The notes below the pieces were generated by a model that searched no databases, was not told the DNA's origin, and worked only from the letters and a program-made list of their open reading frames with translations. A stretch of DNA of 45,484 nt from a bacterium (GTDB taxonomy: Bacteria > UBA9089 > CG2-30-40-21 > SBAY01): NCBI GenBank assembly GCA_040754115.1, contig JBFMDD010000018.1, positions 1 through 45,484 of the forward strand, read 5' to 3'. The position numbers and the translations under genes are program-made. Position 1 is the stretch's first letter. Each line of letters begins with the position of its first letter. Shown here piece by piece: positions 13,256 to 44,878 of the stretch.

Positions 13256-15595
13256 TTAGCTCTCATTGTATCGGCTGAATACCAATATAGAATTCTTACC
13301 ACCAAACCCAAATGTATTTGATACTGCAATATTTATATTAATTTTCCGACCAACGTTAGGTACATAATCCAAATCACATTCTGGGTCAGGATATTCATAG
13401 TTTATAGTAGGTGGTATAAAACTATTTTCTATTGCTAATGCACATACTATTGCTTCAATTGCTCCTGCTGCTCCTATTGAATGACCAAGTATAGACTTAG
13501 TAGAACTTACAGGTATCTCATATGCATGATCACCAAATATCTTCTTAATAATCATTGTTTCTATTTTATCATTTAAAGGTGTAGAAGTGCCATGTGCATT
13601 AATATAATCTACTTCTTCTGGTTTGATTCCCGCATCTATTAAAGCTAGGTTAATTGCTCTTATAGCTTCTACTCCAGAAGGATCAGGTGCAGTTATATGA
13701 TAAGCATCTGTAGTAGTACTATAACCAATTACTTCACTATAAATATGTGCATTTCTATTCAAGGCATGTTCCAGTTCTTCTAAGATTACAATTCCTGCTC
13801 CTTCTCCCGCGACAAATCCACTTCGTTTTATATCAAAAGGTCGACTTGCACTTTCTATTCCAGTAGTCCCAGAGACTAAAGCTCCCATTGCATAGTATGA
13901 GCTTAAGATAAATGGTTTGATAGTTACTTCTGTTCCTCCTACAATTGCCAATTTACCTTTTCCTTCTCGTATATTATTAAATACTTCTCCAATAGCATCA
14001 GTTCCTGCAGTGCAACCTGTAGAGATTGTCATCGCAGGCCCTTTTAATTTTAATTCTAAAGAGATCATTGAAGAAATCGCTCCAGTAAAAATAGCTAATG
14101 AAGCAAAAGGACTTATTCTATCAGCTCCATCTCTTAAGAACTTTTTCATTTGATCTTCTCCAAAACTCAATCCTCCTATTGTTGATCCAATAGTAACTTG
14201 ACTTTCAGTCATCTCCTCTTTAGAAATATCTAATTTAGCATCTTCAACAGCCATTTTAGCTGCGGCAATAGCAAATTGTGTAGTTCTATCAGTGCGTTTT
14301 ATAGTTTTAAAATCCATATATTTTACCGGGTCAAAATCCTTCACCTCTGCTGCTATTTGAACTGGTAAATTTGACGGGTCGAAGGAGGTAATTCTACCTA
14401 TGCCTGATTTGCCAGTACTAATTGCCTGCCAGAATACCTCCTTACCTATTCCTACCGGTGAGATAATTCCTATTCCTGTAATTACTACCCGCGGTTTATG
14501 AGGTCTTTTTGTATATATAGTAACAACTTTACCTCCTCCCTCTTTTTTACTAATTAGCAACTTCTCCATTGCATTTTTGATTAATCCTTGACTATTAGAT
14601 ACACTCTTTGTAATATTTGCAATTCCAATGCTTATGCTTAAAGAAAGATTTAACCTATCTTCCTTACCGAAGATATAGTTTTTTACTTTTAATTGTAAAT
14701 CTTTAGCTAATATATCTATTTCCTCTTTAGTGCCTTTTAAAATAATCCCAAATATATCTCCCTCATATCTACCACCTACTGCATCTTTAGGTAAATTTTC
14801 TCTTACCATATTTGCCAGTTCCTTAATAATTCTATCACCAACAAATAGTCCATAGGTATTTTTTATCGAACTAAAATTATCTATATCAATCATAATGAGT
14901 GCTAAAGGTTGATTTTGACTTTTTGCTATCAGTATTTCTTCATCAAGACAATCTAAGAATGTATTTTTAGTCAAAAAAGAGGTTAATTCATCAACTTTGA
15001 GTAACTCTTCCATCTCTTTTAGTAAATTATATAAATACTGGCTTTTTTCAAAAAGATGGTAATAATTAATCATCCCCTCCTTTATTGTATCTATCCTTGG
15101 TTTTAACATCTGGTTGAGCAAGACTATATCTTCATCAGATACTATTTTAATCTCTTGAATATAGTTAATTAGTGCTTTTGTATCTATACCAAGTTCTTTA
15201 GCATATTTTTTATATTGTTGTAAATCAGGAGATTTATCTAATATTCCACCAATTACAATAGTGGCTAATGGGATATCTCCAATAGCTATAGGGATAAATA
15301 GATTAGTTAATCCTGCATGGCACTTGAATAGACAAAGGCCTTTTTTAATTACCTCCTTCCCAAAGCAGCTATTTAAATAAAATGACTTACATCTTTTATA
15401 GCCTGATTTAGAGCTTTGAACTAATTGACAAAATTTAGATGAATGTTGTCGCTCTGAAACAAACTTCCCACTTGGCTCTATAATTTGAATACCAACGCCA
15501 ATAGTTTTCTCACAGACATCCTCTAAGTATTCCCAGCTATTAAATAAGCCAATTAGGTTTTTAAAATGCTCTAACTCTGATTGATTTATTTTCAT
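13256..15595 (-). CDS. Fusion protein: PocR-like sensor domain + degenerate GGDEF domain + complete beta-ketoacyl-ACP synthase II (FabF-type)
   Basis: aa 1-170 carry a PocR-type Cys pattern (KFCQLV, YKRCKSF, LFKCHAGLTN). aa ~200-360 are GGDEF-like with RYEGDIF (14750-14770) in place of GGDEF/GGEEF. aa ~369-779 are a KAS II with VVITGIGIISPVG, active-site TISTGCTAG, NAHGTSTPLND, LGHSIGAAGA and a C-terminal FGFGGKN. A single uninterrupted ORF. Confidence 0.85.
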   Translation of the reverse strand: MKINQSELEHFKNLIGLFNSWEYLEDVCEKTIGVGIQIIEPSGKFVSERQHSSKFCQLVQSSKSGYKRCKSFYLNSCFGKEVIKKGLCLFKCHAGLTNLFIPIAIGDIPLATIVIGGILDKSPDLQQYKKYAKELGIDTKALINYIQEIKIVSDEDIVLLNQMLKPRIDTIKEGMINYYHLFEKSQYLYNLLKEMEELLKVDELTSFLTKNTFLDCLDEEILIAKSQNQPLALIMIDIDNFSSIKNTYGLFVGDRIIKELANMVRENLPKDAVGGRYEGDIFGIILKGTKEEIDILAKDLQLKVKNYIFGKEDRLNLSLSISIGIANITKSVSNSQGLIKNAMEKLLISKKEGGGKVVTIYTKRPHKPRVVITGIGIISPVGIGKEVFWQAISTGKSGIGRITSFDPSNLPVQIAAEVKDFDPVKYMDFKTIKRTDRTTQFAIAAAKMAVEDAKLDISKEEMTESQVTIGSTIGGLSFGEDQMKKFLRDGADRISPFASLAIFTGAISSMISLELKLKGPAMTISTGCTAGTDAIGEVFNNIREGKGKLAIVGGTEVTIKPFILSSYYAMGALVSGTTGIESASRPFDIKRSGFVAGEGAGIVILEELEHALNRNAHIYSEVIGYSTTTDAYHITAPDPSGVEAIRAINLALIDAGIKPEEVDYINAHGTSTPLNDKIETMIIKKIFGDHAYEIPVSSTKSILGHSIGAAGAIEAIVCALAIENSFIPPTINYEYPDPECDLDYVPNVGRKININIAVSNTFGFGGKNSILVFSRYNES

Positions 15596-25862: not shown

Positions 25863-26207
25863 ATGGAGACTTTATTGAAAGTGGCTATTAAAAAAGAATA
25901 TAAGGATATTTTGGAATCTTTGGGAGATTTTCAAGGAGTGGTCAATAACGCTTTAAGAAGATATGTATTAGATATAGGCAGTGAGCGAGTTGAAAAATGT
26001 GAGATAGAAATTAAAAAATTAGAAGGAAAGTATCATTGTTCATTTAAAACATTTCTTTCTAAAGTAGGTACAGATAAAGATATTACATTCCTACAACAAT
26101 TAGAAGAAAAATATCCTATGTGGGAAAGCGATTTTAACCTATGGGAAACCTATATCACGGAGTTGAATAAATGGAAGGAAAAGATGAGTATTATTTTGAA
26201 AGGTTAA
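25863..26207 (+). CDS. Hypothetical protein, possible antitoxin partner of the downstream DUF6516-like gene
   Basis: 114-aa ORF with a GGAGG RBS. Its stop overlaps the next start (TAATG). No motif recognised. Confidence 0.45.
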   Translation: METLLKVAIKKEYKDILESLGDFQGVVNNALRRYVLDIGSERVEKCEIEIKKLEGKYHCSFKTFLSKVGTDKDITFLQQLEEKYPMWESDFNLWETYITELNKWKEKMSIILKG

Positions 26208-26584
26208 TGAATTTAATCTACCAAAAGTTTGAAGAAGTGGTAATCATTAGAAAGGATATTACCCCTCAAGTCTTTATATTAGAAGTAAATTGTATCTATA
26301 AATCATATAGAGTAGTAATATCTGAAATAGTTGATTTAATGGGTAGAAAATATGCATTTTATATCCTAAAGGATAATTCAATAATTGTAGGATTTGATAA
26401 TTCACCAGATTATAGAGCTATAAAATTAAAATACGAAGAATATTTCAAACATCACTATTATGAAAGAGTTCCTCATCAGCATACATCTAAAAAGAAAGGA
26501 ATTTATCTAACAAAAGATATGAGAGTAGAAGATTTTATAGAGTGGTTAGAACAAGAATTAGAAAACTATCTTAAAACTTGTTAG
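26207..26584 (+). CDS. DUF6516 / TumE-like toxin-antitoxin family protein (tentative)
   Basis: KYAFYILKDNSIIVGFDNSPDYRA....VPHQHTSKKKG resembles the DUF6516 pattern (..rYDNaPHh...PhHkH..). ATG 26207 forms a TAATG overlap with the upstream gene. An alternative start is 26171. Confidence 0.4.
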   Translation: MNLIYQKFEEVVIIRKDITPQVFILEVNCIYKSYRVVISEIVDLMGRKYAFYILKDNSIIVGFDNSPDYRAIKLKYEEYFKHHYYERVPHQHTSKKKGIYLTKDMRVEDFIEWLEQELENYLKTC

Positions 26585-29910: not shown

Positions 29911-29983
29911 TATTTTATTTTATCTCCTTTTTGTCATAGATAAATAGTAGAAAGTAGAGAGCTTTTTCTTTCTACCCCCGTTT

Positions 29984-30012
29984 ATTTTACACATATTGGT
30001 AATCTTTGTCAA
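29984..30012 (-). promoter_or_regulatory. Promoter candidate for the nucleotide-sugar dehydrogenase gene (TTGACA - 17 nt - TAAAAT on the minus strand)
   Basis: On the minus strand, -35 at 30007-30012 and -10 at 29984-29989. Confidence 0.45.
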
Positions 30013-30055
30013 GATTTTTTTAAGAGGGTGTGTTGAAAAAGTCATTTTTTGAAGC

Positions 30056-30233
30056 CTCTCGGATAAAAATAAGGTTCAAGGTTCAAGGAGAAAGGAACAA
30101 GGTAGAGTAACCTTGTTCCTTGCACCTTGATCCTTGATCCTTGATCCTTGATCCTTGATCCTTCAGTGGGGGTGAAGAAGGAATTATCTGCTCGGAAAGG
30201 CTAATAAAATCAACCCTCAATTTTATCCGAGAG
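30056..30233. repeat. Hairpin / MITE-like element with terminal inverted repeats (CTCTCGGATAAAAAT / AATTTTATCCGAGAG) and opposed heptamer arms
   Basis: The 5' arm is (GGTTCAA)-type and the 3' arm is (CCTTGAT)x5. The central perfect stem is AAGGAACAAGGT-agagta-ACCTTGTTCCTT. The arms are complementary except for one periodic mismatch per heptamer. Confidence 0.7.
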
Positions 30234-30521
30234 CGTTCTTTTTAGGAAAGGGGGTAGTTTTTGGGGGTGAATTTTCTAAAAACTGCAAAACCGCCTATCT
30301 CTTTGAATTTGAACATCTCCTTTTTATCCTTACTTTTTATTTTTCTTAATCTTTCTTTTCCCTCATCTCTCCTTTGAAGACTAACTAAAGAAAAAATAGG
30401 TAACTTCATAAAATAAGTAAGAGAACAATTCTTATGCAGATACTCTGGAGCATCAAGACTTACCACCAATATATCCTCATCAACAAATAAAATTATTCCA
30501 TCTATACTCCAGTGGGGTATA

Positions 30522-30658
30522 AATTGTGATTATTTAAAGTAATCGGTAATCAGGTAATCAGTATAATCGGTAATTTGAGATAGCAGGCTACTGCTTGCTC
30601 TTTACCGATAACCTGATAACCGATAACCTGAGTTGATAGTAACAGGAAATCACAAAAT
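30522..30658. repeat. Hairpin / MITE-like element with terminal inverted repeats (AATTGTGATT / AATCACAAAAT) and opposed (GGTAATC)n / (GATAACC)n arms
   Basis: Read directly: AATCGGTAATCAGGTAATCAGTATAATCGGTAA ... TTACCGATAACCTGATAACCGATAACC. Confidence 0.65.
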
Positions 30659-30758
30659 ATGCCTCTCTAAAGTATAATTACCCAATTACCTGGTTACCAA
30701 TTGAGTGAGCCTAAAGCTTTCACACTAAAGTAAACCATCAAGATATTTTGAATAAAAA

Positions 30759-31868
30759 TCAGTGATTATGAGGAAGTTTACCATCAATCAGAATAAATTT
30801 GGCTGCTCTTTTTATTACCACCCCTACCTTTTTTAATTCATCTAAGGTATGAAATTTATTCTTACTTTTTATAATTCGAGCCGCAGAGATGGGACCAATA
30901 CCCGGTACTCTAAGCAATTCCTCTTTAGATGCTTTATTTATCTCTATTGGAAATTTATCCATATTGGTTAGAGCAAAAACCATCTTAGGGTCTAAATTTA
31001 GTGGTAAATTCCCTCCTTCATCAAATTTTAGCTCGTCAAATTTAAACCCATAGCGTCTTAGCAAAAAATCTGCTTGATATAGTCTATGCTCACGCATTAA
31101 AGGAGTTGGTGGATGTGATTCCAATGGTGTATTTTCTATTGGCTGGAAAGCAGAAAAGTAAGTTCTGGCTAAATTTAAATTTTTATAAAGCCAGTCAGTA
31201 GTCTTTAATAGCTCATAATCACTCTCATCACTTGCTCCCACAACAAATTGAGTAGTTTGAGAAACCCTAAGATTTTCTGTAGAAATAATCTTATCTATCC
31301 ATTTCATCCTTTGATAAATATCATTTTTAATATCTTTATTACTAATCTTACTTAATCCTTTTTGAGTAGGTGATTCGAGGTTTAGTGATACTCTATTAGC
31401 TAATTGAGTAGCCCGTTCTACATAGCTAAAATTTGCTCCTGGTAATATCTTAAGATGAATATATCCTTTAAATCTGTATCTCTTTCTTAAAATTTCGACC
31501 ACCTTGATCATTTTTCCCATAGTTTGATTAATACCCCAGGCAACCCCAGAACTTAAGAAAAGCCCATGAACAGAGCGATTGCGGTACAATTCTATAAATA
31601 ATTTCACCAACTCCTCTGGCTCAAAACTTACCCTTGCAAAATCGCGTCCACATCTATTGATACAATACTTACAATCATTCTCACATTCATTACTTAAAAG
31701 TACCTTTAAAAGGAATGTAGTCTTACCATCTGGCAAAGAGGCAGGATAAATCCATCTATTAACAGGGTCCTTTGGGTCTTTAGCCCTTCCACCAGCAATA
31801 CAAGAGGATAAACAAATATCATATTTAGCCGCATCACCTAAAATTTTAGCCTTCTCAAAAATACCCAT
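30759..31868 (-). CDS. Radical SAM protein of the putative DNA modification/repair type, with a C-terminal helix-hairpin-helix
   Basis: N-terminus MGIFEKAKILGDAAKYDICLSSC, radical-SAM cluster CENDCKYCINRC, and a C-terminal HhH (LLRVPGIGPISAARII). I prefer ATG 31868 over 31895. Confidence 0.75.
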   Translation of the reverse strand: MGIFEKAKILGDAAKYDICLSSCIAGGRAKDPKDPVNRWIYPASLPDGKTTFLLKVLLSNECENDCKYCINRCGRDFARVSFEPEELVKLFIELYRNRSVHGLFLSSGVAWGINQTMGKMIKVVEILRKRYRFKGYIHLKILPGANFSYVERATQLANRVSLNLESPTQKGLSKISNKDIKNDIYQRMKWIDKIISTENLRVSQTTQFVVGASDESDYELLKTTDWLYKNLNLARTYFSAFQPIENTPLESHPPTPLMREHRLYQADFLLRRYGFKFDELKFDEGGNLPLNLDPKMVFALTNMDKFPIEINKASKEELLRVPGIGPISAARIIKSKNKFHTLDELKKVGVVIKRAAKFILIDGKLPHNH

Positions 31869-31909
31869 AATTTTAATCCTTACCTTTGTTATCACTGGTA
31901 AATTTTTAT

Positions 31910-31965
31910 CTCTCTACTCTCTACTCTCTACTCTCTACTCTCTACTCTCTACTCTCTACTCTCTA
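31910..31965. repeat. Heptamer array (CTCTCTA x8; TAGAGAG on the coding strand) spanning the stop of the upstream rSAM gene and the gap before the next
   Basis: Counted directly as eight exact units. The stop codon (31949-31951) and the last ~5 codons (..VESRE) of the 31949-33106 ORF lie inside the array. Confidence 0.92.
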
Positions 31966-33106
31966 CTTTACTTGTATCCCATATCCCTGGTATCGATTCC
32001 TTGCAATATGTGCATTTACCATCCTGAATGTTATTCTCAACTACCTTAAACCCAAACCTCTTTATTATTATTTTTGAACAGTGATGACAATAGGTATTTT
32101 CTCCTGAATGACCAGGAACATTACCGATGTAGACATATTTTAATCCTGAAGAAAAAGCTACTTGTCGAAGTGTCTCTAATTTGTGCACCGGTGTTGGAGG
32201 TAAATGTTCTAATTTATAATAAGGGAAAAATCGGGCAAAATGTAATGGAACATCATCCCCTAATTCATTTTTAATCCACTTGCACATCTTTTTGGTTATC
32301 TCTAAATCATCGTTTTTGGTAGCTATTATTAAAGTAGTAATTTCTAAATGTACACCTTCTTCTTTTAATATTTTTAGTGTATTTTTAACCGGCTCAATCC
32401 ATGCTGATGACATTTGATTATAATATTCATCCGTAAAACCTTTCAGGTCAATATTAGCTGCATCTATATATTTACATAATTGCCTCAATGGATTTGGATT
32501 GATGAAACCATTTGAATGATAAGCATTCATCAGTCCCTTTTCTTTTGCTAACATGGCTATATCAAGCATATATTCAAAGAATATAGTTGGTTCTGTATAT
32601 GTAAATCCGATTGAGGGGCATTTCTTAGATAAAGCGGCTTTTACTACCTCCTCATGCCCGATAGGGAAATTCATTGTCTCTTCTGGTTTTGATTGTGAAA
32701 TCTGCCAGTTCTGACAGAACTTACATCGTAAATTACAACCAGCAGTAGCTAATGAGAGAATCTGTGTTCCTGGTAGGAAATGGGAAAGAGGTTTTTTCTC
32801 AATTGGGTCCTGATGTATAGCACATGGATTGCCGTATACAAGAGTGGTTAATTTCCCTTTTTGATTTTCTCTTGCTCCACAAAAACTCCTCTCTCCTTCA
32901 CGAAGAAGACATCTTCGTGGACAGAGTTGACACTGGACTCGCTGATTTCCAAATGATAGATAATACAGTGCCTCTTTGGATGAAATATATCCTTTTTTAC
33001 CTGAAATCTCTTTCCCTTCAGTGGTGTTATGTAAAAAAGGAGTACTCGTTAATGCTAAACTTAATATAGAGATCTTTTTTAAGAACTCCCTACGAGTCAA
33101 TTTCAT
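31949..33106 (-). CDS. AmmeMemoRadiSam-type radical SAM enzyme (AmrS-like) with an N-terminal twin-arginine signal-like sequence
   Basis: GCNLRCKFCQNW (CX3CX2C), a conserved N-terminal CQLCPRRC...FCGAR block and a C-terminal CHHC...CTYC tail. The N-terminus is MKLTRREFLKKISILSLALTS. There is no in-frame ATG between residue 1 and about residue 145. Confidence 0.8.
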   Translation of the reverse strand: MKLTRREFLKKISILSLALTSTPFLHNTTEGKEISGKKGYISSKEALYYLSFGNQRVQCQLCPRRCLLREGERSFCGARENQKGKLTTLVYGNPCAIHQDPIEKKPLSHFLPGTQILSLATAGCNLRCKFCQNWQISQSKPEETMNFPIGHEEVVKAALSKKCPSIGFTYTEPTIFFEYMLDIAMLAKEKGLMNAYHSNGFINPNPLRQLCKYIDAANIDLKGFTDEYYNQMSSAWIEPVKNTLKILKEEGVHLEITTLIIATKNDDLEITKKMCKWIKNELGDDVPLHFARFFPYYKLEHLPPTPVHKLETLRQVAFSSGLKYVYIGNVPGHSGENTYCHHCSKIIIKRFGFKVVENNIQDGKCTYCKESIPGIWDTSKVESRE

Positions 33107-33113
33107 GTAAACC

Positions 33114-33296
33114 TCACCCGGCTAATTGCTGAAATAGTTTTTTATCTTTCACAGGTAGCTTATCTAAGTCAAAGATATCTTCTTTACTATCATCTTCTAT
33201 CTTGTCATCAAAGAGTATTGAAATTAATGATAAGGGAGTTAAAAATTGTTTATTAAAAAATTGTCTTCGCGTAATCTTTTCATTAACCTCTTTCAT
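33114..33296 (-). CDS. 60-aa ORF with a twin-arginine-like motif and an acidic tail; function unknown
   Basis: MKEVNEKITRRQFFNKQFLTPLSLISILFDDKIEDDSKEDIFDLDKLPVKDKKLFQQLAG. It ends 7 nt before the rSAM ATG, and the rSAM SD (GGTGAGG) lies within its last codons. Confidence 0.4.
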   Translation of the reverse strand: MKEVNEKITRRQFFNKQFLTPLSLISILFDDKIEDDSKEDIFDLDKLPVKDKKLFQQLAG

Positions 33297-33326: not shown

Positions 33327-36300
33327 TTATTCTATTGTTGGCGGGAGGTTGACATGGATTTTGACTTTCTTTGTATCTTCTCCACCTTTACCATCGGTTA
33401 CTTTGAAGGTTATTTGATAAGTACCATTCTGGTCTTTGGTAGGACGCCAACTGAAAATTTTAGTTTCTTTAGAAAAACTTGCACCTTCGGGTAAAGAGGA
33501 TATAGCATAAGTTAATTTGTCATCATCTGGATCAAAGCCTGAAACATTGAATTGTAATAATTCACCTATATTTATTATTGTATCTTTTATTATAGATAGT
33601 GTAGGAGATATATTTTTATCAATTATAGTTAATACCCAATTTTGAAGTACTACAGATGTTCCATCTGTTATAGTTAAAATTAGTGTTTTAATTCCTGCAT
33701 CTATATGACTTGGAGTGTATGTCCATGCGTTATCAGTAGATTTTTCTACTCCATCCAGTTTCCAATTATATTTTATTTCATCATGATTAGGGTCTGATGC
33801 ATATACCTCAAAGGTTAATGGCTCCCCTTCAAATATAGTTGGTGATAAATCTACTGGTGTGTACGACCAGATTATTGGCGAAGGATTAAATGTAGTAAAC
33901 TTCCAGGTAACTGGTTTTTGGAGATAATTACCCATTATATCTCTTGCCTCCATTGAAACACTCACTGTATATTTTGTATTTCCTGATAAATCAGAGATAG
34001 GTGTAAAAATAAGTTTATTTGCCCTCCATGTAAAACTGCCTAAGGTATCAGGCGTAATAGAAAATGCCTGTATTACTGACTCCTCATCCATCTTTTCACT
34101 AAAAGTGATTGTAATAACTTCTTCAGGTGAAACATTACTCCCAGTTGGAGTATAAGCTATTATCTTGGGGAAAATACTGTCTTTAGGAATCCCTACATAC
34201 TGAGCAGAAGGCATAGATTTATTCCCATAAATATCAAAGGTAAAGAAGGTGTAATAATAAGGTAAATTATTGACCAGAGCAGTATCAATATAAGTAGTCT
34301 CTTTTATTCCATCTGCTATAAGATTTCCTAATTTACCTTTAACAATCGAGCGATAAATCTGAACATGTGAGAATAAAAATGCCTTTTCTTTTGGCTTTTG
34401 CCAGCTTAATTTTAATTTCTCTCCTCCTTCTAAAGGTGTAATAGAGACTTCTGTTGGTAATGAAGGAGGTAGCGTTAATGTTATGCCAGAAGAGGATCTG
34501 CAATATTCTGAACTACCATTTTTATTAAATGCCTTTATTCTATAATAATAAGTTGTATCTGGAAGGAGATTTTTATCTTGATAATTGGTGGTATTCGGTA
34601 AGAGAATTGTCAATTGAGTATAAGCCTCATGCGGCGTACCTCGTTCAACAATAAAGCCTGATTCATCTTTTGAGTTATCCCTAAAGCTAATGTTTATCTG
34701 AGAATAAAACACTACCTCTGTAACTAAATTATCCGGAGCAATCGGTGGTTTATACCCTTTACCTATGGCATATAGTTGCCCATTATTAGCTCCTACATAA
34801 ACAGTCCCATCTTTACCAATATTCGGAGATGTACTAATTTTAGAGTCAATAGTATAATTCCATTTTAACTTCCCATTTTTTGATATACAACATAAATTAT
34901 AATCCTTTGAGATGGCATATATATTTCCCGCAGAATCAATTATTGGACTAAAAGTACTCCACCCAATAGGATATTCCCATAGAATTTTACCATTTTGTGC
35001 CACAGCTCTTAAACTACCTTCTTGAGAATTCCAACATATATTATAATAAATTATACCATCAGGAGTTATAATTGGTGAGAAATTCAGCCAACCTTTTCCC
35101 TCATGCTCAATTTTAAATCGAATCGTTCCTTGAGGAGTGAAAGAATAAAGTGCATTATTAAGTCCAATATAAACATTCCCATTTGAGTCGATTGCAGGGG
35201 CTGTAATAGCCTCACCTGCGGTTGTATATTCCCATTTAAGCATACCAGTTGAATCAAGGCAAAATAGCCCACCATCTATTCCTTTTGCACCGATGTAGAT
35301 ATTTCCATTAACATCAATTGCTGGAGTGAAAGAAATCATTCCACCACCAATATAGCTTGACCACCTGAGTCTTCCATCTGGATGAATAGAATATACCTTC
35401 CCATTCCATGTAAATACATGAATTGCAAAATTATGTCCAATTACAGGAGAGCTCTCAATCGGGAATTTAATAGGATATTTCCACTTTAATGTCCCATCTG
35501 GTAATATAGCATATAGATTTTTATCCGAAGATAATACATAGATTACTCCATCCTCACCAATTACTGGTGATGTATTTATCGCTCCTTGCGTAGGATAACG
35601 CCATATTAATTCACCTTTGGAAGAAAGACAATAAAGATATGAATCTTCTGAACCTATATAAATCCTTCCTTTAGTATCAATTAAAGGATTAGAGCGATAA
35701 ATTCTATATTTAGTAGGATATGTCCACGAAAGGGCAGGAGAATCTATACCTGAATAAGGACTTATACCAGCTGGTTGAATTTTAGGTGCTGGTTTAGGCG
35801 GTGCAAGATGTGTCTTAACCATGGTTATATTTGAGTAGTCAGAGTTACCATCCTGATTATACGCCCTTACACAATAGTAGTAAGTTGTATTTGGAGTAAG
35901 TTGTATATCATGATATGAGGTAGTGTTTGCAAGGGTAACAGCTACCTGAACAAACTCTTTCTCATCTATAGTTTTGCGCTCTATTTTAAATCCCAACTCA
36001 TTATCTGAATTATCTTTCCATGTAAGTTTTATCTCGAAGTGAGAAATAGGTATTGCTTCCAGGTCAGTTGGAGGTGAAGGAGTAATTTGAGTTATTTCTG
36101 TAGAAACCTCTTCTGAGTATTTAGAGTATCCTTCATCATTATATGCACGGATTCGATATAGATAAGTAACTTTTGGTAAAAGCCCGGTATCCTGATATTC
36201 AGTTATATCCTTTGATACTGTATTTAGTTGTATATAGGTACCATCTTCTTGCTTCCTTTCTATTTCAAATCCTAATTCATTTATAGAGTTATCCTGCCAT

Positions 36301-39300
36301 GTCAATTTTATTTTATCCGGTAATAAATGTGAAATGCGAAGATTGGTTGGTGCAATAGGTACAACATCTAATGTTTTACACTCTACTTTATTGGAATAAT
36401 ATGAATCCCCAAGAGAATTATAAGCACATATGCGATAATAGTAAGTAGTATTTGGAACTAAATTTTTATCCTGATATGTAGTGGTATTGGCTAAAGTAAG
36501 AGCAATTTGCGTGTAGGCTTTTTCATCCTCGCTTCGTTCTATCTTAAATCCTCGTTCATTCTTTGAATTATCTTGCCAACTAAGTTCTATTTGAGTAGTT
36601 GAAATAGGTTTTGCAAGTAAATCAAATGGTGGATAAGGAAGGGTATCTTTTGTAGTAACCCCTTGCTCATTTGAATAACTGGAGTTACCTGCTTGATTAT
36701 ATGCCCTTATTCGATAATAATAAGTTGTATTTGGTTCTAAATATTTATCTTCATATATAGTAACATTTGCTCCAAGTATGAACATCTCCTCATAATTTTT
36801 ACCTTCTTCTTTTCGCTCAAGTTTAAATCCTAACTCATTATCTGAATTATCCAGCCATGATAAATTTATCTGATTTGAAGAAATAGCGTTAACTTTAAGA
36901 TTTGTTGGAACAAATGGCACAACAGGTAAAGTAGCAATCGTCAGTAAATTTGAGTATTCAGAGTTACCAATCCAATTGTATGCCCTTACTCGATAGCAAT
37001 AAGTTGTATTAGGAGTAAGGTCACAATCTTGATAAGAAGTGGTATCTTGGTTCAAAATGGCTATTTGAGTATAAGCTAATTCGGTATCAGCCCTTCTTTC
37101 TACCTTAAATCCTACCTCATTATTTGAGTTGTCTTGCCAGAAGAGTTTTATCCGTGTACTTAGATTTGATACCCCGGTTAAATCAGTAGGTGGTGCAGGT
37201 AATATATCCAATGTCCTTACGCCAGATACTGTTGAATAATCAGAATCACCTAACTTATTGTATGCTCTTATACGATAATAATAAGTAGTATCTTTTCTAA
37301 GTCCTTTATCTATATACGAAGTAGTATTAGGAGGTAAAATTTTTATCTGAACATATTCTTGTAGAGGTAATGCTCGCTCTAATTTAAACCCTTGTTCATT
37401 ATTTGAATTATCCTGCCATGCAAGTTCTATCGCACTTTTTGAAATAGGCTTAACCTGTAAATTAGTTGGTGCTGGAGGTGGAGCATCTGTGGTTTTAACC
37501 ATGATTTCTTTTGAATAATTTGATAAACCTACATCATTATAAGCTACTACTCGATAAAAGTAAGTAGTTAATGGAGTTACAGTTGTGTCTTTTAAAGTTG
37601 TAGTATTAGCTGGTAGTACTTCAATTAAGGCATATTCCCCATCTGGTTTTCTTCTTTCAACTTTAAAACCTTGTTCATTGTCTGAATTATCCTTCCACTC
37701 AAGAACTACCTTGTTTGATGAAACCTGTATTGTTTTCAAATTACGAGGTGGTAGTGGCGGTAAAGACTTAGTTGTAACCTCAACTTCATTTGAATAATCA
37801 GAATTACCCATATCATTAAAAGATAAGACTCGATATGAATAAGAAGTAGCTGGTGTTAAGTTCGTATCTTGAAATGAAGTACTATTGGCAGGCAGGGTTT
37901 TTATCTGGGTATATTCTTTTATTTTTCTTTCGACTTTAAATCCTTGCTCATTATCTGATGTATCAAGCCATGTAAGACTTACTGCTGTTGATGAAAAATT
38001 TATTACCTTTAGCTCTTTTGGAGCAGTAGGAGGTGGAGTTTTTGTAGTAACAGTTATTTCATTGGAATATTCAGACATTCCAACTTCATTATAAGCCACT
38101 ATACGATATGAATAATTGGTTCCAGGACTAATATTTACATCTTGGAAGGTGGTAATATTTGGGTCTACAGTATTTATTAAAATGTATTTTTCATCCTTTA
38201 ATTTTCTCTCTATCCGAAATCCTTGTTCATCTTCTGAGTTATCTGTCCAGGAAAGTGTTATTTGGGTAACTGATACATCTATCGTCTCTAGATCAGTTGG
38301 AGGATTTGGAGGTAATGAAGGTAATAAAGACTTAGTGGTAGCTTCATTCTGGACTGAATATTCAGAAAAGCCCATTTTATTATAAGCCACTACGCGATAT
38401 ATGTAGGTAGTACCTGGGTTAAGCGCTACATCTAAAAATGAGGTAGAGTCAGGTGGTAAAATTTTTATTAAGGTATAACTTTGGTCTTTTAGTTTACGAT
38501 AGATTCTATATCCTAATTCATTATCTGCATTATCCTGCCAGGTAAGCATTATCTCTTCAGAAGATACTGAAGTTATAAGAAGATTAGTAGGTGAATCAGG
38601 AGGTGTAATCTTTTCCTTTTCCACTACTTCCTTTACTTCCTCTATCTTCTCTATCTTCTCTATCTTCTCTATCTTCTTTACTTCTTCTATTTTCTTCTTT
38701 ATTGGCTTAGGAATTGTGACCTTAGGTTTTGTAGGGGTTATTGGTGTAATTTCAGAGCCAATAGCATATAAATTCCTATCCCGACTACCAACATAAATAG
38801 TTCCATCCTGACCTATAGCTAAAGATGTTGGACCATGTCCAACATCACAACTCCAAATTATCCTTCCTTCTTTTGGCTCAACCGCATGAACTTTACCATC
38901 AAAAGAGGCAATATAAATTATACCATCTGAAGTAATAACAGGTGCAGAATTAAAAATCCTACCTGTTTTTGCACACCAAATACCTTTAGAAGTAATACCG
39001 TAAAGTCCCTCATTGCTACCAATGTAAATAAAACCATCTTTTGATATAGCAGGGGAAGAGTAAATAGGAGAGTCAAGTTGGATAGAAAGTAGATTTTCAT
39101 CTTTAGTTATAACTAATATAAGTCTATTTGAACAACCTACATAAATATTTCCTTCTGAATCGATTGCAGGTGATGAGAAGGCGGATATTTTAAGATCTTT
39201 TTTAAATCTAATGCTTCCATCTTTGTTTATTGCATGTAGAGTACCATCATTACAGCCAATGTAAATTATGCCCTCATTACTAATAGCAGGCGAAGACTGG

Positions 39301-39848
39301 ATGCTACTCAATGTTTGATATTTCCATTTTAGACTTCCATCTTTATTTACTGCATGAAGGCTACCATCTTCACATCCAACAAAGATTGTTTCATCCTGAC
39401 CAATAGCAATAGAAGATGACTTAATCTTACTTTCAGTAGAATAAACCCATTGACTTTCACCATCAGAGTTAAAACACAAAAGATGCCCATTGCTTACACC
39501 CAGATAGAGATTACCATTTTTTGAGATAGCAGGTGTAGAATCAATTTTAACTCCAATGGATATAATCTTTTCCTTTTTGCCAGAAGAAGAAATAATGTGT
39601 AAATTTCCATCTTCTGTTGCCAGATAGATTCTTCCTGAGGAATCTATTATTGGCGAGGCAAAGATATAACTATTGGCAAAATAACTCCATTTAATGATGG
39701 GTTGCTTTATCCCACTATAGGTACTTCTTCCAGAGCGTTGTGGGTCATGTTGAAACATAGGCCAACTACTTGTAGCTTCAACACCATTAGCCTTTAACGG
39801 GCTTAATATTAACAACCCTAATAATATTATCCACTTGCAACTCCTCAT
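33327..39848 (-). CDS. Giant secreted multidomain protein: signal peptide, beta-propeller 1, 10 tandem FN3, beta-propeller 2, 2 further FN3-like domains, then Big_5-like and Ig/cadherin-like domains
   Basis: The signal peptide MRSCKWIILLGLLILSPLKANG starts at ATG 39848; the tracked 39929 start overlaps rpsU. PQQ/BamB-like repeats (..DGxLYAI..G...W.Y) fall at about 38754-39767 and 34758-35732. FN3 units have the pattern P.PPTNL...I.L.W.DNSDNE.GF.IERK....Y..I....NTT.Y.D..L.P.TTYYYR.RAYN..G.S.YS. No TM, LPXTG or other anchor was recognised at the C-terminus. Confidence 0.85.
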   Translation of the reverse strand: MRSCKWIILLGLLILSPLKANGVEATSSWPMFQHDPQRSGRSTYSGIKQPIIKWSYFANSYIFASPIIDSSGRIYLATEDGNLHIISSSGKKEKIISIGVKIDSTPAISKNGNLYLGVSNGHLLCFNSDGESQWVYSTESKIKSSSIAIGQDETIFVGCEDGSLHAVNKDGSLKWKYQTLSSIQSSPAISNEGIIYIGCNDGTLHAINKDGSIRFKKDLKISAFSSPAIDSEGNIYVGCSNRLILVITKDENLLSIQLDSPIYSSPAISKDGFIYIGSNEGLYGITSKGIWCAKTGRIFNSAPVITSDGIIYIASFDGKVHAVEPKEGRIIWSCDVGHGPTSLAIGQDGTIYVGSRDRNLYAIGSEITPITPTKPKVTIPKPIKKKIEEVKKIEKIEKIEKIEEVKEVVEKEKITPPDSPTNLLITSVSSEEIMLTWQDNADNELGYRIYRKLKDQSYTLIKILPPDSTSFLDVALNPGTTYIYRVVAYNKMGFSEYSVQNEATTKSLLPSLPPNPPTDLETIDVSVTQITLSWTDNSEDEQGFRIERKLKDEKYILINTVDPNITTFQDVNISPGTNYSYRIVAYNEVGMSEYSNEITVTTKTPPPTAPKELKVINFSSTAVSLTWLDTSDNEQGFKVERKIKEYTQIKTLPANSTSFQDTNLTPATSYSYRVLSFNDMGNSDYSNEVEVTTKSLPPLPPRNLKTIQVSSNKVVLEWKDNSDNEQGFKVERRKPDGEYALIEVLPANTTTLKDTTVTPLTTYFYRVVAYNDVGLSNYSKEIMVKTTDAPPPAPTNLQVKPISKSAIELAWQDNSNNEQGFKLERALPLQEYVQIKILPPNTTSYIDKGLRKDTTYYYRIRAYNKLGDSDYSTVSGVRTLDILPAPPTDLTGVSNLSTRIKLFWQDNSNNEVGFKVERRADTELAYTQIAILNQDTTSYQDCDLTPNTTYCYRVRAYNWIGNSEYSNLLTIATLPVVPFVPTNLKVNAISSNQINLSWLDNSDNELGFKLERKEEGKNYEEMFILGANVTIYEDKYLEPNTTYYYRIRAYNQAGNSSYSNEQGVTTKDTLPYPPFDLLAKPISTTQIELSWQDNSKNERGFKIERSEDEKAYTQIALTLANTTTYQDKNLVPNTTYYYRICAYNSLGDSYYSNKVECKTLDVVPIAPTNLRISHLLPDKIKLTWQDNSINELGFEIERKQEDGTYIQLNTVSKDITEYQDTGLLPKVTYLYRIRAYNDEGYSKYSEEVSTEITQITPSPPTDLEAIPISHFEIKLTWKDNSDNELGFKIERKTIDEKEFVQVAVTLANTTSYHDIQLTPNTTYYYCVRAYNQDGNSDYSNITMVKTHLAPPKPAPKIQPAGISPYSGIDSPALSWTYPTKYRIYRSNPLIDTKGRIYIGSEDSYLYCLSSKGELIWRYPTQGAINTSPVIGEDGVIYVLSSDKNLYAILPDGTLKWKYPIKFPIESSPVIGHNFAIHVFTWNGKVYSIHPDGRLRWSSYIGGGMISFTPAIDVNGNIYIGAKGIDGGLFCLDSTGMLKWEYTTAGEAITAPAIDSNGNVYIGLNNALYSFTPQGTIRFKIEHEGKGWLNFSPIITPDGIIYYNICWNSQEGSLRAVAQNGKILWEYPIGWSTFSPIIDSAGNIYAISKDYNLCCISKNGKLKWNYTIDSKISTSPNIGKDGTVYVGANNGQLYAIGKGYKPPIAPDNLVTEVVFYSQINISFRDNSKDESGFIVERGTPHEAYTQLTILLPNTTNYQDKNLLPDTTYYYRIKAFNKNGSSEYCRSSSGITLTLPPSLPTEVSITPLEGGEKLKLSWQKPKEKAFLFSHVQIYRSIVKGKLGNLIADGIKETTYIDTALVNNLPYYYTFFTFDIYGNKSMPSAQYVGIPKDSIFPKIIAYTPTGSNVSPEEVITITFSEKMDEESVIQAFSITPDTLGSFTWRANKLIFTPISDLSGNTKYTVSVSMEARDIMGNYLQKPVTWKFTTFNPSPIIWSYTPVDLSPTIFEGEPLTFEVYASDPNHDEIKYNWKLDGVEKSTDNAWTYTPSHIDAGIKTLILTITDGTSVVLQNWVLTIIDKNISPTLSIIKDTIINIGELLQFNVSGFDPDDDKLTYAISSLPEGASFSKETKIFSWRPTKDQNGTYQITFKVTDGKGGEDTKKVKIHVNLPPTIE
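35808..38606 (-). repeat. Ten tandem ~280-bp coding repeats (FN3 modules) within the giant gene
   Basis: aa 442-1374 of the tracked ORF divide into 10 units of about 93 aa with the conserved W.DNS.NE.GF..ER and TY.YR..AYN motifs. Confidence 0.85.
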
Positions 39849-39861
39849 ATATAAAGGCAAT

Positions 39862-40035
39862 TTAGAACCTCTTTTTTCTGCGAGCGATAATTCTTCTTCT
39901 TCTCTCACTCGGCTTTTCATAATACTCACGTTTCTTCATTTCAGTAATTATCCCTGCTGATTGGCATGAGCGTTTAAATCTCCTTAACGCATTATCAATA
40001 GATTCATCATCTCGAATCTTTATTCCTGCCGGCAT
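39862..40035 (-). CDS. rpsU: 30S ribosomal protein S21
   Basis: [60 protein letters not shown] at 40033-40035. The longer tracked ORF start (40098) is rejected. Confidence 0.9.
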
Positions 40036-43877: not shown

Positions 43878-43993
43878 ATAGTATTAAGTATAGAGTGGAT
43901 GAATGGTGAAAAAAGTGGAATATTGGAAGAAAAAGCTCAAACAGATTCTGAAAAATGCATAGAGAATATTTTAGGCAGAAGAGGGAAAAGAAA

Positions 43994-44461
43994 ATGGATT
44001 TTAGGTTAAAAGATTTTGTAAGAGGTCTAAAGGAAGGTTTTGGTGAAAGCTTATCAGGGGTTATATTGTATGGTTCAAGGGCAAGAGGAGAGGCAGTTGC
44101 AAGTAGTGATTATGATGTATTTATTTTGATAGATGGCTCTTTGCCTAAAAGCCCTTTTAAAAGAAGTAAGTTGATAATGAGCAAGATTAAGGATAGGAAG
44201 AATATAAATTTCATACTAAGGACAAAAGCGGAGTTTGAAACCTCCTTCCCCTCTCTATACTTAGACTTGGCATTGGATGGAAAAGTCTTATTTGATAAAA
44301 AAGACTATGTAAAATGCAAACTTGAAAGAATAAAGGAACTGCTGAGAGAAGCAGGACTGGTGCGGGAGAAGCGAAGTTATGGATTTGGCTGGTATTGGAA
44401 GAAGGTTCCTGTAAAATTCCCATGGAAAATAGATTGGGAGGGTGTAGATGCAATCTTTTGA
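43994..44461 (+). CDS. Nucleotidyltransferase-domain protein (second MNT-type antitoxin)
   Basis: GVILYGSRARGEAVASSDYDVFILID NTase motif. I prefer ATG 43994 (RBS GAGGGAAAAG) over 43955. Confidence 0.75.
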   Translation: MDFRLKDFVRGLKEGFGESLSGVILYGSRARGEAVASSDYDVFILIDGSLPKSPFKRSKLIMSKIKDRKNINFILRTKAEFETSFPSLYLDLALDGKVLFDKKDYVKCKLERIKELLREAGLVREKRSYGFGWYWKKVPVKFPWKIDWEGVDAIF

Positions 44462-44536
44462 AGATGCAGACTAAAGTTATCTGAAGGATTCATAAAATAG
44501 GGAGATGAACATCTGAAATTAGGATTTTATAGGTCT

Positions 44537-44878
44537 GTGGTTGATAATTCCCAGCTTGCAGTCGAAAATTCAATAAAAGCCCTGATCTCCTTCTTTAGAC
44601 CTATTCCAAAGATTCATAAGTTTGAAGAAGTGATTGATGAGTTAATAAAAGAGGCAAGGCTTGAGGCGGAAGATGTAAAAAAGATAGAACGTCTAAAAGA
44701 GATTGGTAGTATCCTAGGTTTTGAAGAACATATTAAAACAGACTATGGAGATGAACTGGAGAAGATAACTCCATGGGAGCTCTTTGATAAGGAGGATGCA
44801 GATGAGTCTCTAAAGGCTGCAAAAGAGGCCTTTGCCATATCAAAGTTACTCATTGAAAAGATGAAGAAAAACAAGTAG
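44537..44878 (+). CDS. HEPN-domain protein, apparently N-terminally degraded
   Basis: VVDNSQLAVENSIKALISFF... helical HEPN-like sequence. Upstream in the same frame, (R)CRLKLSEGFIK-TAG(44498-44500)-GDEHLKLGFYRS continues the HEPN N-terminus. A possible ATG (44448) is in another frame. Confidence 0.5.
   Translation: MVDNSQLAVENSIKALISFFRPIPKIHKFEEVIDELIKEARLEAEDVKKIERLKEIGSILGFEEHIKTDYGDELEKITPWELFDKEDADESLKAAKEAFAISKLLIEKMKKNK

Follow-up and report, generated by a model that had tools for sequence, protein, structure and literature searches.

An AmmeMemoRadiSam-type radical SAM enzyme with a predicted export signal and an adjacent small gene that most probably arose from its 5' end

We analysed a 45,484-nt stretch of bacterial DNA (contig JBFMDD010000018.1; hereafter the window), in which four genes lie closely packed on the minus strand: the gene of a giant 2200-aa surface protein (33327..39929), a 60-aa open reading frame (ORF; 33114..33296, hereafter the mini-ORF), a 385-aa radical S-adenosylmethionine (SAM) enzyme of the AmmeMemoRadiSam type with a signal-like N-terminal extension (31949..33106, hereafter rSAM), and a second radical SAM gene with a helix-hairpin-helix (HhH) domain (30759..31895). 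The original prediction, made from the letters of this stretch, had placed the two middle ORFs at the same positions, with the mini-ORF stopping 7 nt ahead of the rSAM ATG, and both points are correct. At this junction (33107..33116), the TGA of the mini-ORF (33114-33116) overlaps the GAGG Shine-Dalgarno sequence of rSAM (33112-33115), which sits 5 nt ahead of its ATG, and we found neither a terminator-like nor a strong promoter-like site. Similarly, no terminator was found between any of the four genes, and the promoter and terminator scan never rose above shuffled expectation. The mini-ORF and rSAM are co-transcribed in the window. A scan of the entire window against Rfam gave no match. Statements below on the absence of partner genes hold for the window alone, not for the whole genome.

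By its sequence, rSAM is an ordinary member of the AmmeMemoRadiSam family. We found it matches the family model TIGR04337, a hidden Markov model (HMM), at 379.7 bits (cutoff 220), over model positions 3-337 of 349 and protein residues 48-380 (the catalytic core, 31967..32965), and the Pfam Radical_SAM domain at 70.1 bits. Both the GCNLRCKFCQNW motif and the C-terminal CHHC...CTYC are present, so the AmrS-like core that had been proposed stands. Since the family match begins at residue 48, about 47 residues form an N-terminal extension. Across 40 homologues, the three cysteines of the CX3CX2C motif (C124, C128 and C131; nt 32714-32737, minus strand) are invariant, and C59/C62/C66/C76 and C340/C343/C365/C368 are invariant or nearly so. 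After TIGR04337, the next-best sequence matches of rSAM were glycyl-radical activase HMMs.

The AlphaFold2 model of rSAM, built from 40 sequences (pLDDT 90.1), has a confident core, and its residues 1-33 are detached and of low confidence, forming a helix (residues 5-20) and then a disordered linker. With Foldseek, the nearest solved fold to this model was pyruvate formate-lyase activating enzyme (PFL-AE, PDB 3CB8; E 5e-12, target TM-score 0.82). A sequence search of the PDB with rSAM gave no match.

The extension is not a product of the choice of start codon. The first internal methionine of rSAM is residue 145, in agreement with the earlier claim that no in-frame ATG lies before about this position, and codons 2-60 offer a sole alternative start, the TTG of codon 3, with which the twin arginine (RR) would be retained. 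Another start codon deleting the RR segment, such as a downstream GTG or TTG, is ruled out: none lies within codons 4-60, and the family model begins at residue 48. In four close homologues, dN/dS was 0.16-0.54 for the extension and 0.11-0.21 for the core.

We found the extension has features of a signal for twin-arginine translocation (Tat). The motif T4-R-R-E-F-L-K10 (33077..33097, minus strand) is of the S/T-R-R-x-F-L-K type, lies within the first 35 residues and is conserved in most of 120 homologues. Both rSAM and the mini-ORF match the default TatP regular expression, RR.[FGAVML][LITMVF], which by itself gives 15-23% false positives (PMC1182353). An approximate TatFind-like rule (an RR motif and at least 13 uncharged residues) was passed by just two of the window's 104 six-frame ORFs of 50 aa or more, rSAM and the mini-ORF.

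The hydrophobic region (h-region) of the rSAM signal (ISILSLALTSTPFL; 33032..33073, minus strand) comprises 18 uncharged residues, and its most hydrophobic 12-mer has a hydropathy of 1.64. Among about 190 family N-termini, this value averaged 1.74 ± 0.30 for those with RR (n = 115), 1.88 for those with KR (n = 43) and 2.86 for those with neither (n = 33; p ~1e-15). The window rSAM is thus within the RR class, not the class of Sec signals and transmembrane (TM) segments. A weakly hydrophobic h-region is the textbook distinction of Tat signals from those of Sec and the signal recognition particle. We also found a lipobox-like [LV]x[ST]C right after the h-region, at about positions 19-22, in all seven of the closest relatives (74-80% identity), which are therefore predicted to be Tat lipoproteins.

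We then scanned species-representative genomes for rSAM and examined the best 80 of about 600 matches (80 loci). These come from Thermodesulfobacteriota, Omnitrophota, Zixibacteria, WOR-3, Stahlbacteria, KSB1, Bacteroidales, Ignavibacteria, anammox Planctomycetota, Aminicenantes and two archaeal metagenome-assembled genomes. The rSAM N-terminus is of the RR class in 31 of the 80 loci, KR or RK in 24, TM/Sec-like in 17 and 'none' in eight. Most of the latter show an RR motif or a TM-like stretch behind a mis-picked start, and a single locus of the 80 (L045) is genuinely without the extension. Among the 120 closest proteins, 77 with RR and 18 with KR pass the TatFind-like rule, most others are RR/RK or TM/Sec-like, and only two, including a fragment, have no extension. 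Most clade members have a lipobox-like or AxA-like site after the h-region. An export-type N-terminus thus appears to be a trait of a large, taxonomically broad and apparently undescribed clade, not one peculiar to the window rSAM. Classical Sec-type rSAM signals occur in Omnitrophota and Planctomycetales members (L014, L030, L032, L037, L052 and L075; e.g. MKNFLKFISCLFFLYLFLPNALA, followed by D).

Neighbours within 5 kb of rSAM were clustered in the 80 loci, many of which lie on short contigs. The commonest, adjoining rSAM in 39 loci, is a polytopic membrane protein of 700-800 aa with a Spermine_synth domain, which resembles PRK03612 and 'fused MFS/spermidine synthase'. In 27 loci rSAM adjoins a fusion of about 500 aa that joins AmmeMemoRadiSam protein B (Memo) to protein A (AMMECR1), with scores of 276.6 bits for TIGR04336 (Memo) and 195.9 bits for TIGR04335 (AMMECR1); the Memo and AMMECR1 genes of the clade are mostly fused in this way. 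Both neighbour families occur in 17 loci and at least one in 49. Many of the fusion genes overlap the rSAM stop codon and hence form an operon with it, and most fusions start with a Sec- or lipoprotein-like hydrophobic segment. Separate AMMECR1 proteins, with no signal seen, occur in L019 and L023. A DsbD_2 transmembrane protein of reductant transfer is present in ten loci, often following in Omnitrophota, and a DUF362 protein in seven. In L007 the gene order is tatC, rSAM, the spermidine-synthase-like gene and DUF362, with tatC directly upstream of rSAM, the spermidine-synthase-like gene directly downstream, and no Memo/AMMECR1 fusion. Examples of the clade gene set are at L013 5995-8576, L025 5830-9134 and L007 9250-14541.

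In the window itself, we found no AMMECR1, Memo or spermidine-synthase-like gene, using Pfam on ORFs of at least 90 aa and tblastn with the partner proteins. The absence of AMMECR1 and Memo stressed by the original prediction is therefore true of the 45 kb, but it misleads for the RR-tagged type of enzyme, given the fusion beside rSAM elsewhere. Neither partner is nearby in the close relatives L003, L004 and L006 or in the more distant L008 and L009. Hence, the window locus is a slightly degenerate member of its clade, without a lipobox cysteine and without linked partners. The simplest reading of the neighbourhoods is that the whole AmmeMemoRadiSam system of the clade is envelope-located. The literature that we searched, which did not include Burroughs et al. 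2019, holds no description of a Tat-tagged radical SAM enzyme, of the spermidine-synthase association or of an envelope-located version of AmmeMemoRadiSam.

The mini-ORF is a genuine but orphan, lineage-restricted gene. Its family has five proteins of 54-60 aa with 63-70% identity, in which all indels are in-frame and dN/dS is 0.20-0.41; a search of 5.8 billion sequences and an exhaustive HMMER profile search of 1.84 billion representatives recovered only these five, and NCBIfam and Pfam gave no family match. A pattern scan of a metagenome collection found no extra copies; the JGI contig L001 was also unrecovered there, its sample apparently being outside the collection. The five share an invariant RR, a helix and the C-terminal pattern '...F-x-[LV]-[DN]-K-L-x3-DKK[LV]F[QK]QL[AS]G', with invariant columns at F42, K46, L47, D51, K52, K53, F55, Q57, L58 and G60. 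The RR motif, retained within the family as RRxF[LF], is T9-R-R-Q-F-F-N-K16 in the window and precedes a 13-residue h-region, Q17-F29 (together 33210..33272, minus strand); the conserved C-terminus is F42...DKKLFQQLAG60 (33117..33173, minus strand). AlphaFold2 places helices at residues 10-29 and 49-59 (pLDDT 65) with an acidic linker between them.

The h-region of the mini-ORF has exactly 13 uncharged residues, the minimum of the TatFind-like rule. Its hydropathy, 2.16 in the window and 2.2-2.6 in the family, lies between the Tat and the Sec/TM classes and nearer the anchor class, and there is no cleavage site after the h-region (...ISILF-DDK). Without such a site, and from the distribution of charges, the product is predicted to be a small peptide anchored in the membrane N-in/C-out, whose conserved C-terminal helix is acidic.

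The mini-ORF and rSAM are found together and apart. In the window, 7 nt separate the mini-ORF from an intact rSAM, and in L004 and L005 the gap is 145 nt, so the translational coupling seen in the window is not a conserved trait. In L002 the mini-ORF is followed by a 47-aa ORF (448-591) that is the rSAM signal region only and then by unrelated DNA, and in L091 by a 58-aa stub (540-716) of the same signal-region kind and then by unrelated DNA with a priA-like gene. L002 and L091 are independent, natural 'signal-peptide-only' stubs, in which the RR signal and lipobox region are kept and the catalytic domain of rSAM is deleted. In L001 the mini-ORF is followed directly by an HhH radical SAM gene (87% identical to that of the window) with no AmrS, and in L090 the contig ends past the mini-ORF. 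Conversely, L003 and L006 have rSAM but no mini-ORF, and so do all 80 species-level loci, where full and tail-only HMMs found no mini-ORF-like small gene upstream; the conserved short RR ORF upstream of Tat-tagged AmrS homologues, for which a search had been proposed, was thus not found there. The two genes are separable both ways, which argues against an obligate substrate or partner relation, and the role of dedicated substrate, precursor or piggyback partner imagined for the mini-ORF is not supported, given its retention where rSAM is truncated or absent.

We compared the mini-ORF with the N-terminus of rSAM and found, for example, 34% identity over 51 columns within one lineage, with RREF, LALIS and PK...Q.L shared. 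Smith-Waterman scores of mini-ORFs were 39-62 against the AmrS N-termini of their own lineages, compared to means of 26-30 (standard deviation 5-9) against 54 other RR/KR N-termini. Because of these scores and the naturally occurring stub ORFs, the mini-ORF was most probably born when the 5' end of rSAM was duplicated and truncated; the signal region and the start of the mature protein would have been kept. Together with the stub loci, the mini-ORF would be a small, clean case of an older gene giving rise to a new one through its signal-peptide-coding end.

So far, we have shown that the RR segment of rSAM is translated, under purifying selection, conserved clade-wide, physico-chemically Tat-like and structurally detached from the fold. 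On balance we favour, as rather probable, that rSAM is an AmmeMemoRadiSam enzyme from a clade with export signals that is itself exported by Tat, and that the mini-ORF is a lineage-restricted gene derived from rSAM and independent of it. The original prediction that rSAM may be exported or membrane-associated is thereby sustained as a prediction, on the conserved and selected RR segment, its low-hydropathy h-region, the lipobox of relatives and the signal-bearing partner fusion. The enzyme would carry a single radical SAM [4Fe-4S] site plus two metal sites of four cysteines each, would be folded and loaded with metal in the cytoplasm and would then probably be passed to the Tat translocase, to end in the periplasm or on the outer face of the cytoplasmic membrane. 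In the closest relatives, the lipobox cysteine would carry a lipid anchor. In many other lineages, rSAM would act on a substrate of the envelope, together with the signal-bearing Memo+AMMECR1 fusion and the polytopic aminopropyltransferase-like membrane protein; in the window lineage those partners are not linked to rSAM.

Several points weigh against export of rSAM or against the derivation of the mini-ORF. The curated Tat-signal model TIGR01409 scored the rSAM N-terminus at 15.5 bits (E 0.017), just under its 16.7 cutoff; among relatives, P0012 (18.3 bits) and P0027 (19.9 bits) pass and P0045 (15.6 bits) is below. The Pfam Tat model PF10518 did not match the window rSAM N-terminus, and neither model matched the mini-ORFs (two members). 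The twin-arginine observation of the original prediction is confirmed for rSAM and weaker for the mini-ORF, which these curated models do not recognise. At the lipobox position the window rSAM has LTST, with Thr22 where the closest relatives have cysteine in the alignment, proline at +1 and no clear AxA site; because of this threonine, its signal may be an uncleaved anchor or a substrate of signal peptidase I. Sec-type signals on an enzyme with predicted iron-sulphur (Fe-S) sites are hard to reconcile with the export of unfolded chains by Sec; since about one-fifth of the clade is Sec-type and Sec could not carry a folded Fe-S protein across the membrane, export may not be what unites the clade. 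For the duplication origin of the mini-ORF, the evidence is an identity of 34% over about 50 residues together with a rank test, rather than a tree.

The chemistry is a further point against export. Radical SAM enzymes depend on SAM and on a low-potential electron donor and are for that reason regarded as strictly cytoplasmic. We know of neither SAM nor a low-potential reductant, both required by radical SAM chemistry, outside the cytoplasm.

The strongest rival is that the N-terminal hydrophobic segment is a mere membrane tether, with the catalytic domain on the cytoplasmic face and the RR a determinant of topology rather than a Tat signal. It agrees with the established need for cytoplasmic SAM and reductant, with the Sec/TM-like N-termini in 17 of the 80 loci (by which a folded Fe-S enzyme could not be exported), with the missing lipobox cysteine and sub-cutoff TIGR01409 score of the window copy, and with the signal-less separate AMMECR1 proteins. 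However, positive charges N-terminal of the helix predict an N-in/C-out topology, the h-regions of RR and KR members have the low hydropathy typical of Tat and unlike that of TM anchors, and lipobox-like or AxA-like sites lie behind the h-region in most members. Moreover, the signals of the Memo-AMMECR1 fusions are of the classical Sec or the lipoprotein-like type, and the DsbD_2 and tatC neighbours point towards the periplasm. We consider the tether unlikely.

For the mini-ORF, we weighed whether it is a signal-peptide mimic that modulates Tat targeting, proofreading or anchoring of rSAM or of other substrates, as a decoy, a chaperone bait or a small anchor subunit. It is closer to the signal region of rSAM than other Tat-like signals are, it retains RRxF[LF] and the helix, and it lies immediately upstream of rSAM (the window, L004 and L005) or of rSAM stubs (L002 and L091). 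But TIGR01409 and PF10518 do not recognise it, it persists without rSAM in L001, and NCBIfam, Pfam and the search of 1.84 billion representatives offer no precedent family; such a role is improbable.

Least probable of all is that the mini-ORF is a substrate or precursor of rSAM, like a ribosomally synthesized and post-translationally modified peptide (RiPP), modified in the cytoplasm and exported by its own RR signal: the adjacent genes with their 7-nt gap and shared Shine-Dalgarno/stop junction, the conserved C-terminal motif, the rSAM domains related to the Memo-AMMECR1 type in peptide-processing systems (PMC7159879) and the existence of rSAM-matured exported effectors such as HxsA (PMC13128918) speak for it, but purifying selection on the mini-ORF beside the 47-58-aa stubs (L002 and L091) or without rSAM (L001), the lack of the mini-ORF beside rSAM in L003, L006 and every one of the 80 species loci, the variable coupling distance (145 nt in L004), and an rSAM that has no RRE/PqqD or SPASM/twitch domain in Pfam and scores far below the cutoffs of SPASM maturase models speak against it.

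Returning to an exported rSAM, a broader form of this reading is that the complete AmmeMemoRadiSam pathway is extracytoplasmic in many anaerobic phyla, with a Tat-exported rSAM, a Memo-AMMECR1 fusion exported by Sec or as a lipoprotein, and the polytopic aminopropyltransferase-like protein. We regard this as possible but doubtful. The membrane partner might move a SAM-derived cofactor across the membrane, or else the substrate (a lipid or a polyamine), and in Omnitrophota reducing power might come from the DsbD-like protein. If true, rSAM would be the first radical SAM enzyme to be exported.

Export would challenge the cytoplasm-only view of radical SAM enzymes and would give a first clue, from localisation, to the function of the Memo/AMMECR1/rSAM triad, with an envelope substrate (a lipid, an isoprenoid or a polyamine-modified component) as the prime candidate. 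The eukaryotic homologues MEMO1 and AMMECR1 are disease-linked. The interest sits with the signal-bearing variant at the level of the clade rather than with the window locus. Memo contexts are said to have been linked to nucleotide-base and isoprenoid modification in the comparison of Memo/AMMECR1/rSAM contexts by Burroughs et al. 2019 (J Biol Chem).

The giant gene upstream of the mini-ORF encodes a protein with an N-terminal hydrophobic segment, ten fn3 domains, several PQQ/BamB-like beta-propeller blocks and C-terminal Big_5, Big_9 and cadherin-like (Ig-like) domains (Pfam), which is probably a surface adhesin or S-layer-like. We found no homologue of it in L001-L006, L090 or L091, and thus no synteny with rSAM or the mini-ORF; upstream genes in related loci are glycosyltransferases, sugar-modifying enzymes or unrelated genes. 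The giant gene is adjacent but outside any conserved unit, and the suggestion that rSAM or the mini-ORF acts on its product finds no support as a functional link.

Downstream of rSAM, the HhH radical SAM gene matches the NCBIfam model TIGR03916 at 361.4 bits (cutoff 343.5), with the match from residue 12, and is a putative gene of DNA modification or repair; its true start is likely the ATG at 31868, not the GTG at 31895. The model ('rSAM_link_UDG') is named after the usual linkage to a gene of the uracil-DNA-glycosylase family. No such partner adjoins the gene here, and the 850 nt downstream hold no ORF of at least 90 aa. A perfect tandem array of the heptamer CTCTCTA (8.3 copies; 31910..31967, no strand; Tandem Repeats Finder, 100% matches, score 116) lies upstream of this gene and provides the final codons and the stop of rSAM. 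Further heptamer arrays occur at 30071-30088, 30111-30163 and 30539-30631, inside the ORF-free stretch of about 850 nt (29911-30758), and a similar array directly follows the rSAM stub of L002. These arrays could be hot spots of deletion or recombination, or modulators of expression.

Elsewhere in the window, a 779-aa ORF (13256-15595, minus strand) is an unusual fusion of a PocR sensory domain, a GGDEF diguanylate cyclase and complete N- and C-terminal beta-ketoacyl synthase domains. A nucleotidyltransferase/HEPN pair (43955-44878, plus strand) resembles a toxin-antitoxin module. At 25863-26584 (plus strand), a TumE-like toxin ORF has a sub-threshold Pfam score (22.7 bits, cutoff 23.4) and an unannotated small ORF ahead of it.

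We compared the two genes with known systems. As in the HXS defence system, whose HxsA, a small protein bound for the periplasm, is encoded next to a radical SAM gene (PMC13128918), a small gene adjoins a radical SAM gene here; unlike in HXS, the two genes of the window are separable, and the Pfam content of rSAM is Radical_SAM alone plus a sub-threshold Fer4_12. The 'formate dehydrogenase region TAT target' TIGR02811 (at most 70 aa) resembles the mini-ORF in its RR signal, short conserved C-terminus and adjacent redox enzyme gene, but has no sequence relationship with it; on the N-termini of two rSAM homologues this model scored a sub-threshold 12.2 and 15.8 bits (cutoff 48.45).

PflA (3CB8) is the closest solved fold to rSAM, but the identity is about 15%, and PflA is cytoplasmic, signal-less and without the extra cysteine-rich N- and C-terminal modules. 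Among Tat-exported Fe-S proteins and Tat lipoproteins are the hydrogenase small subunits, NapG and the DmsA/B type. With these rSAM shares the S/T-R-R-x-F-L-K motif with a weakly hydrophobic h-region and metal clusters that would be acquired in the cytoplasm, and its close relatives add a lipobox; rSAM, in contrast, would need its co-substrate SAM outside the cell. We found no radical SAM enzyme among Tat substrates in the literature searched. From the AmmeMemoRadiSam enzyme of TIGR04337 ('AmrS'), rSAM differs by about 47 extra, Tat-like N-terminal residues outside the family model, and its clade differs by partners that are fused into one protein with its own signals and by the spermidine-synthase-like protein as the commonest neighbour, whereas the window is without any partner. 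At the same time, rSAM matches the AmrS HMM over its full length, has the CX3CX2C and the flanking four-cysteine motifs of AmrS, and belongs with 80 related loci in 27 of which the AmrS partners adjoin the enzyme.

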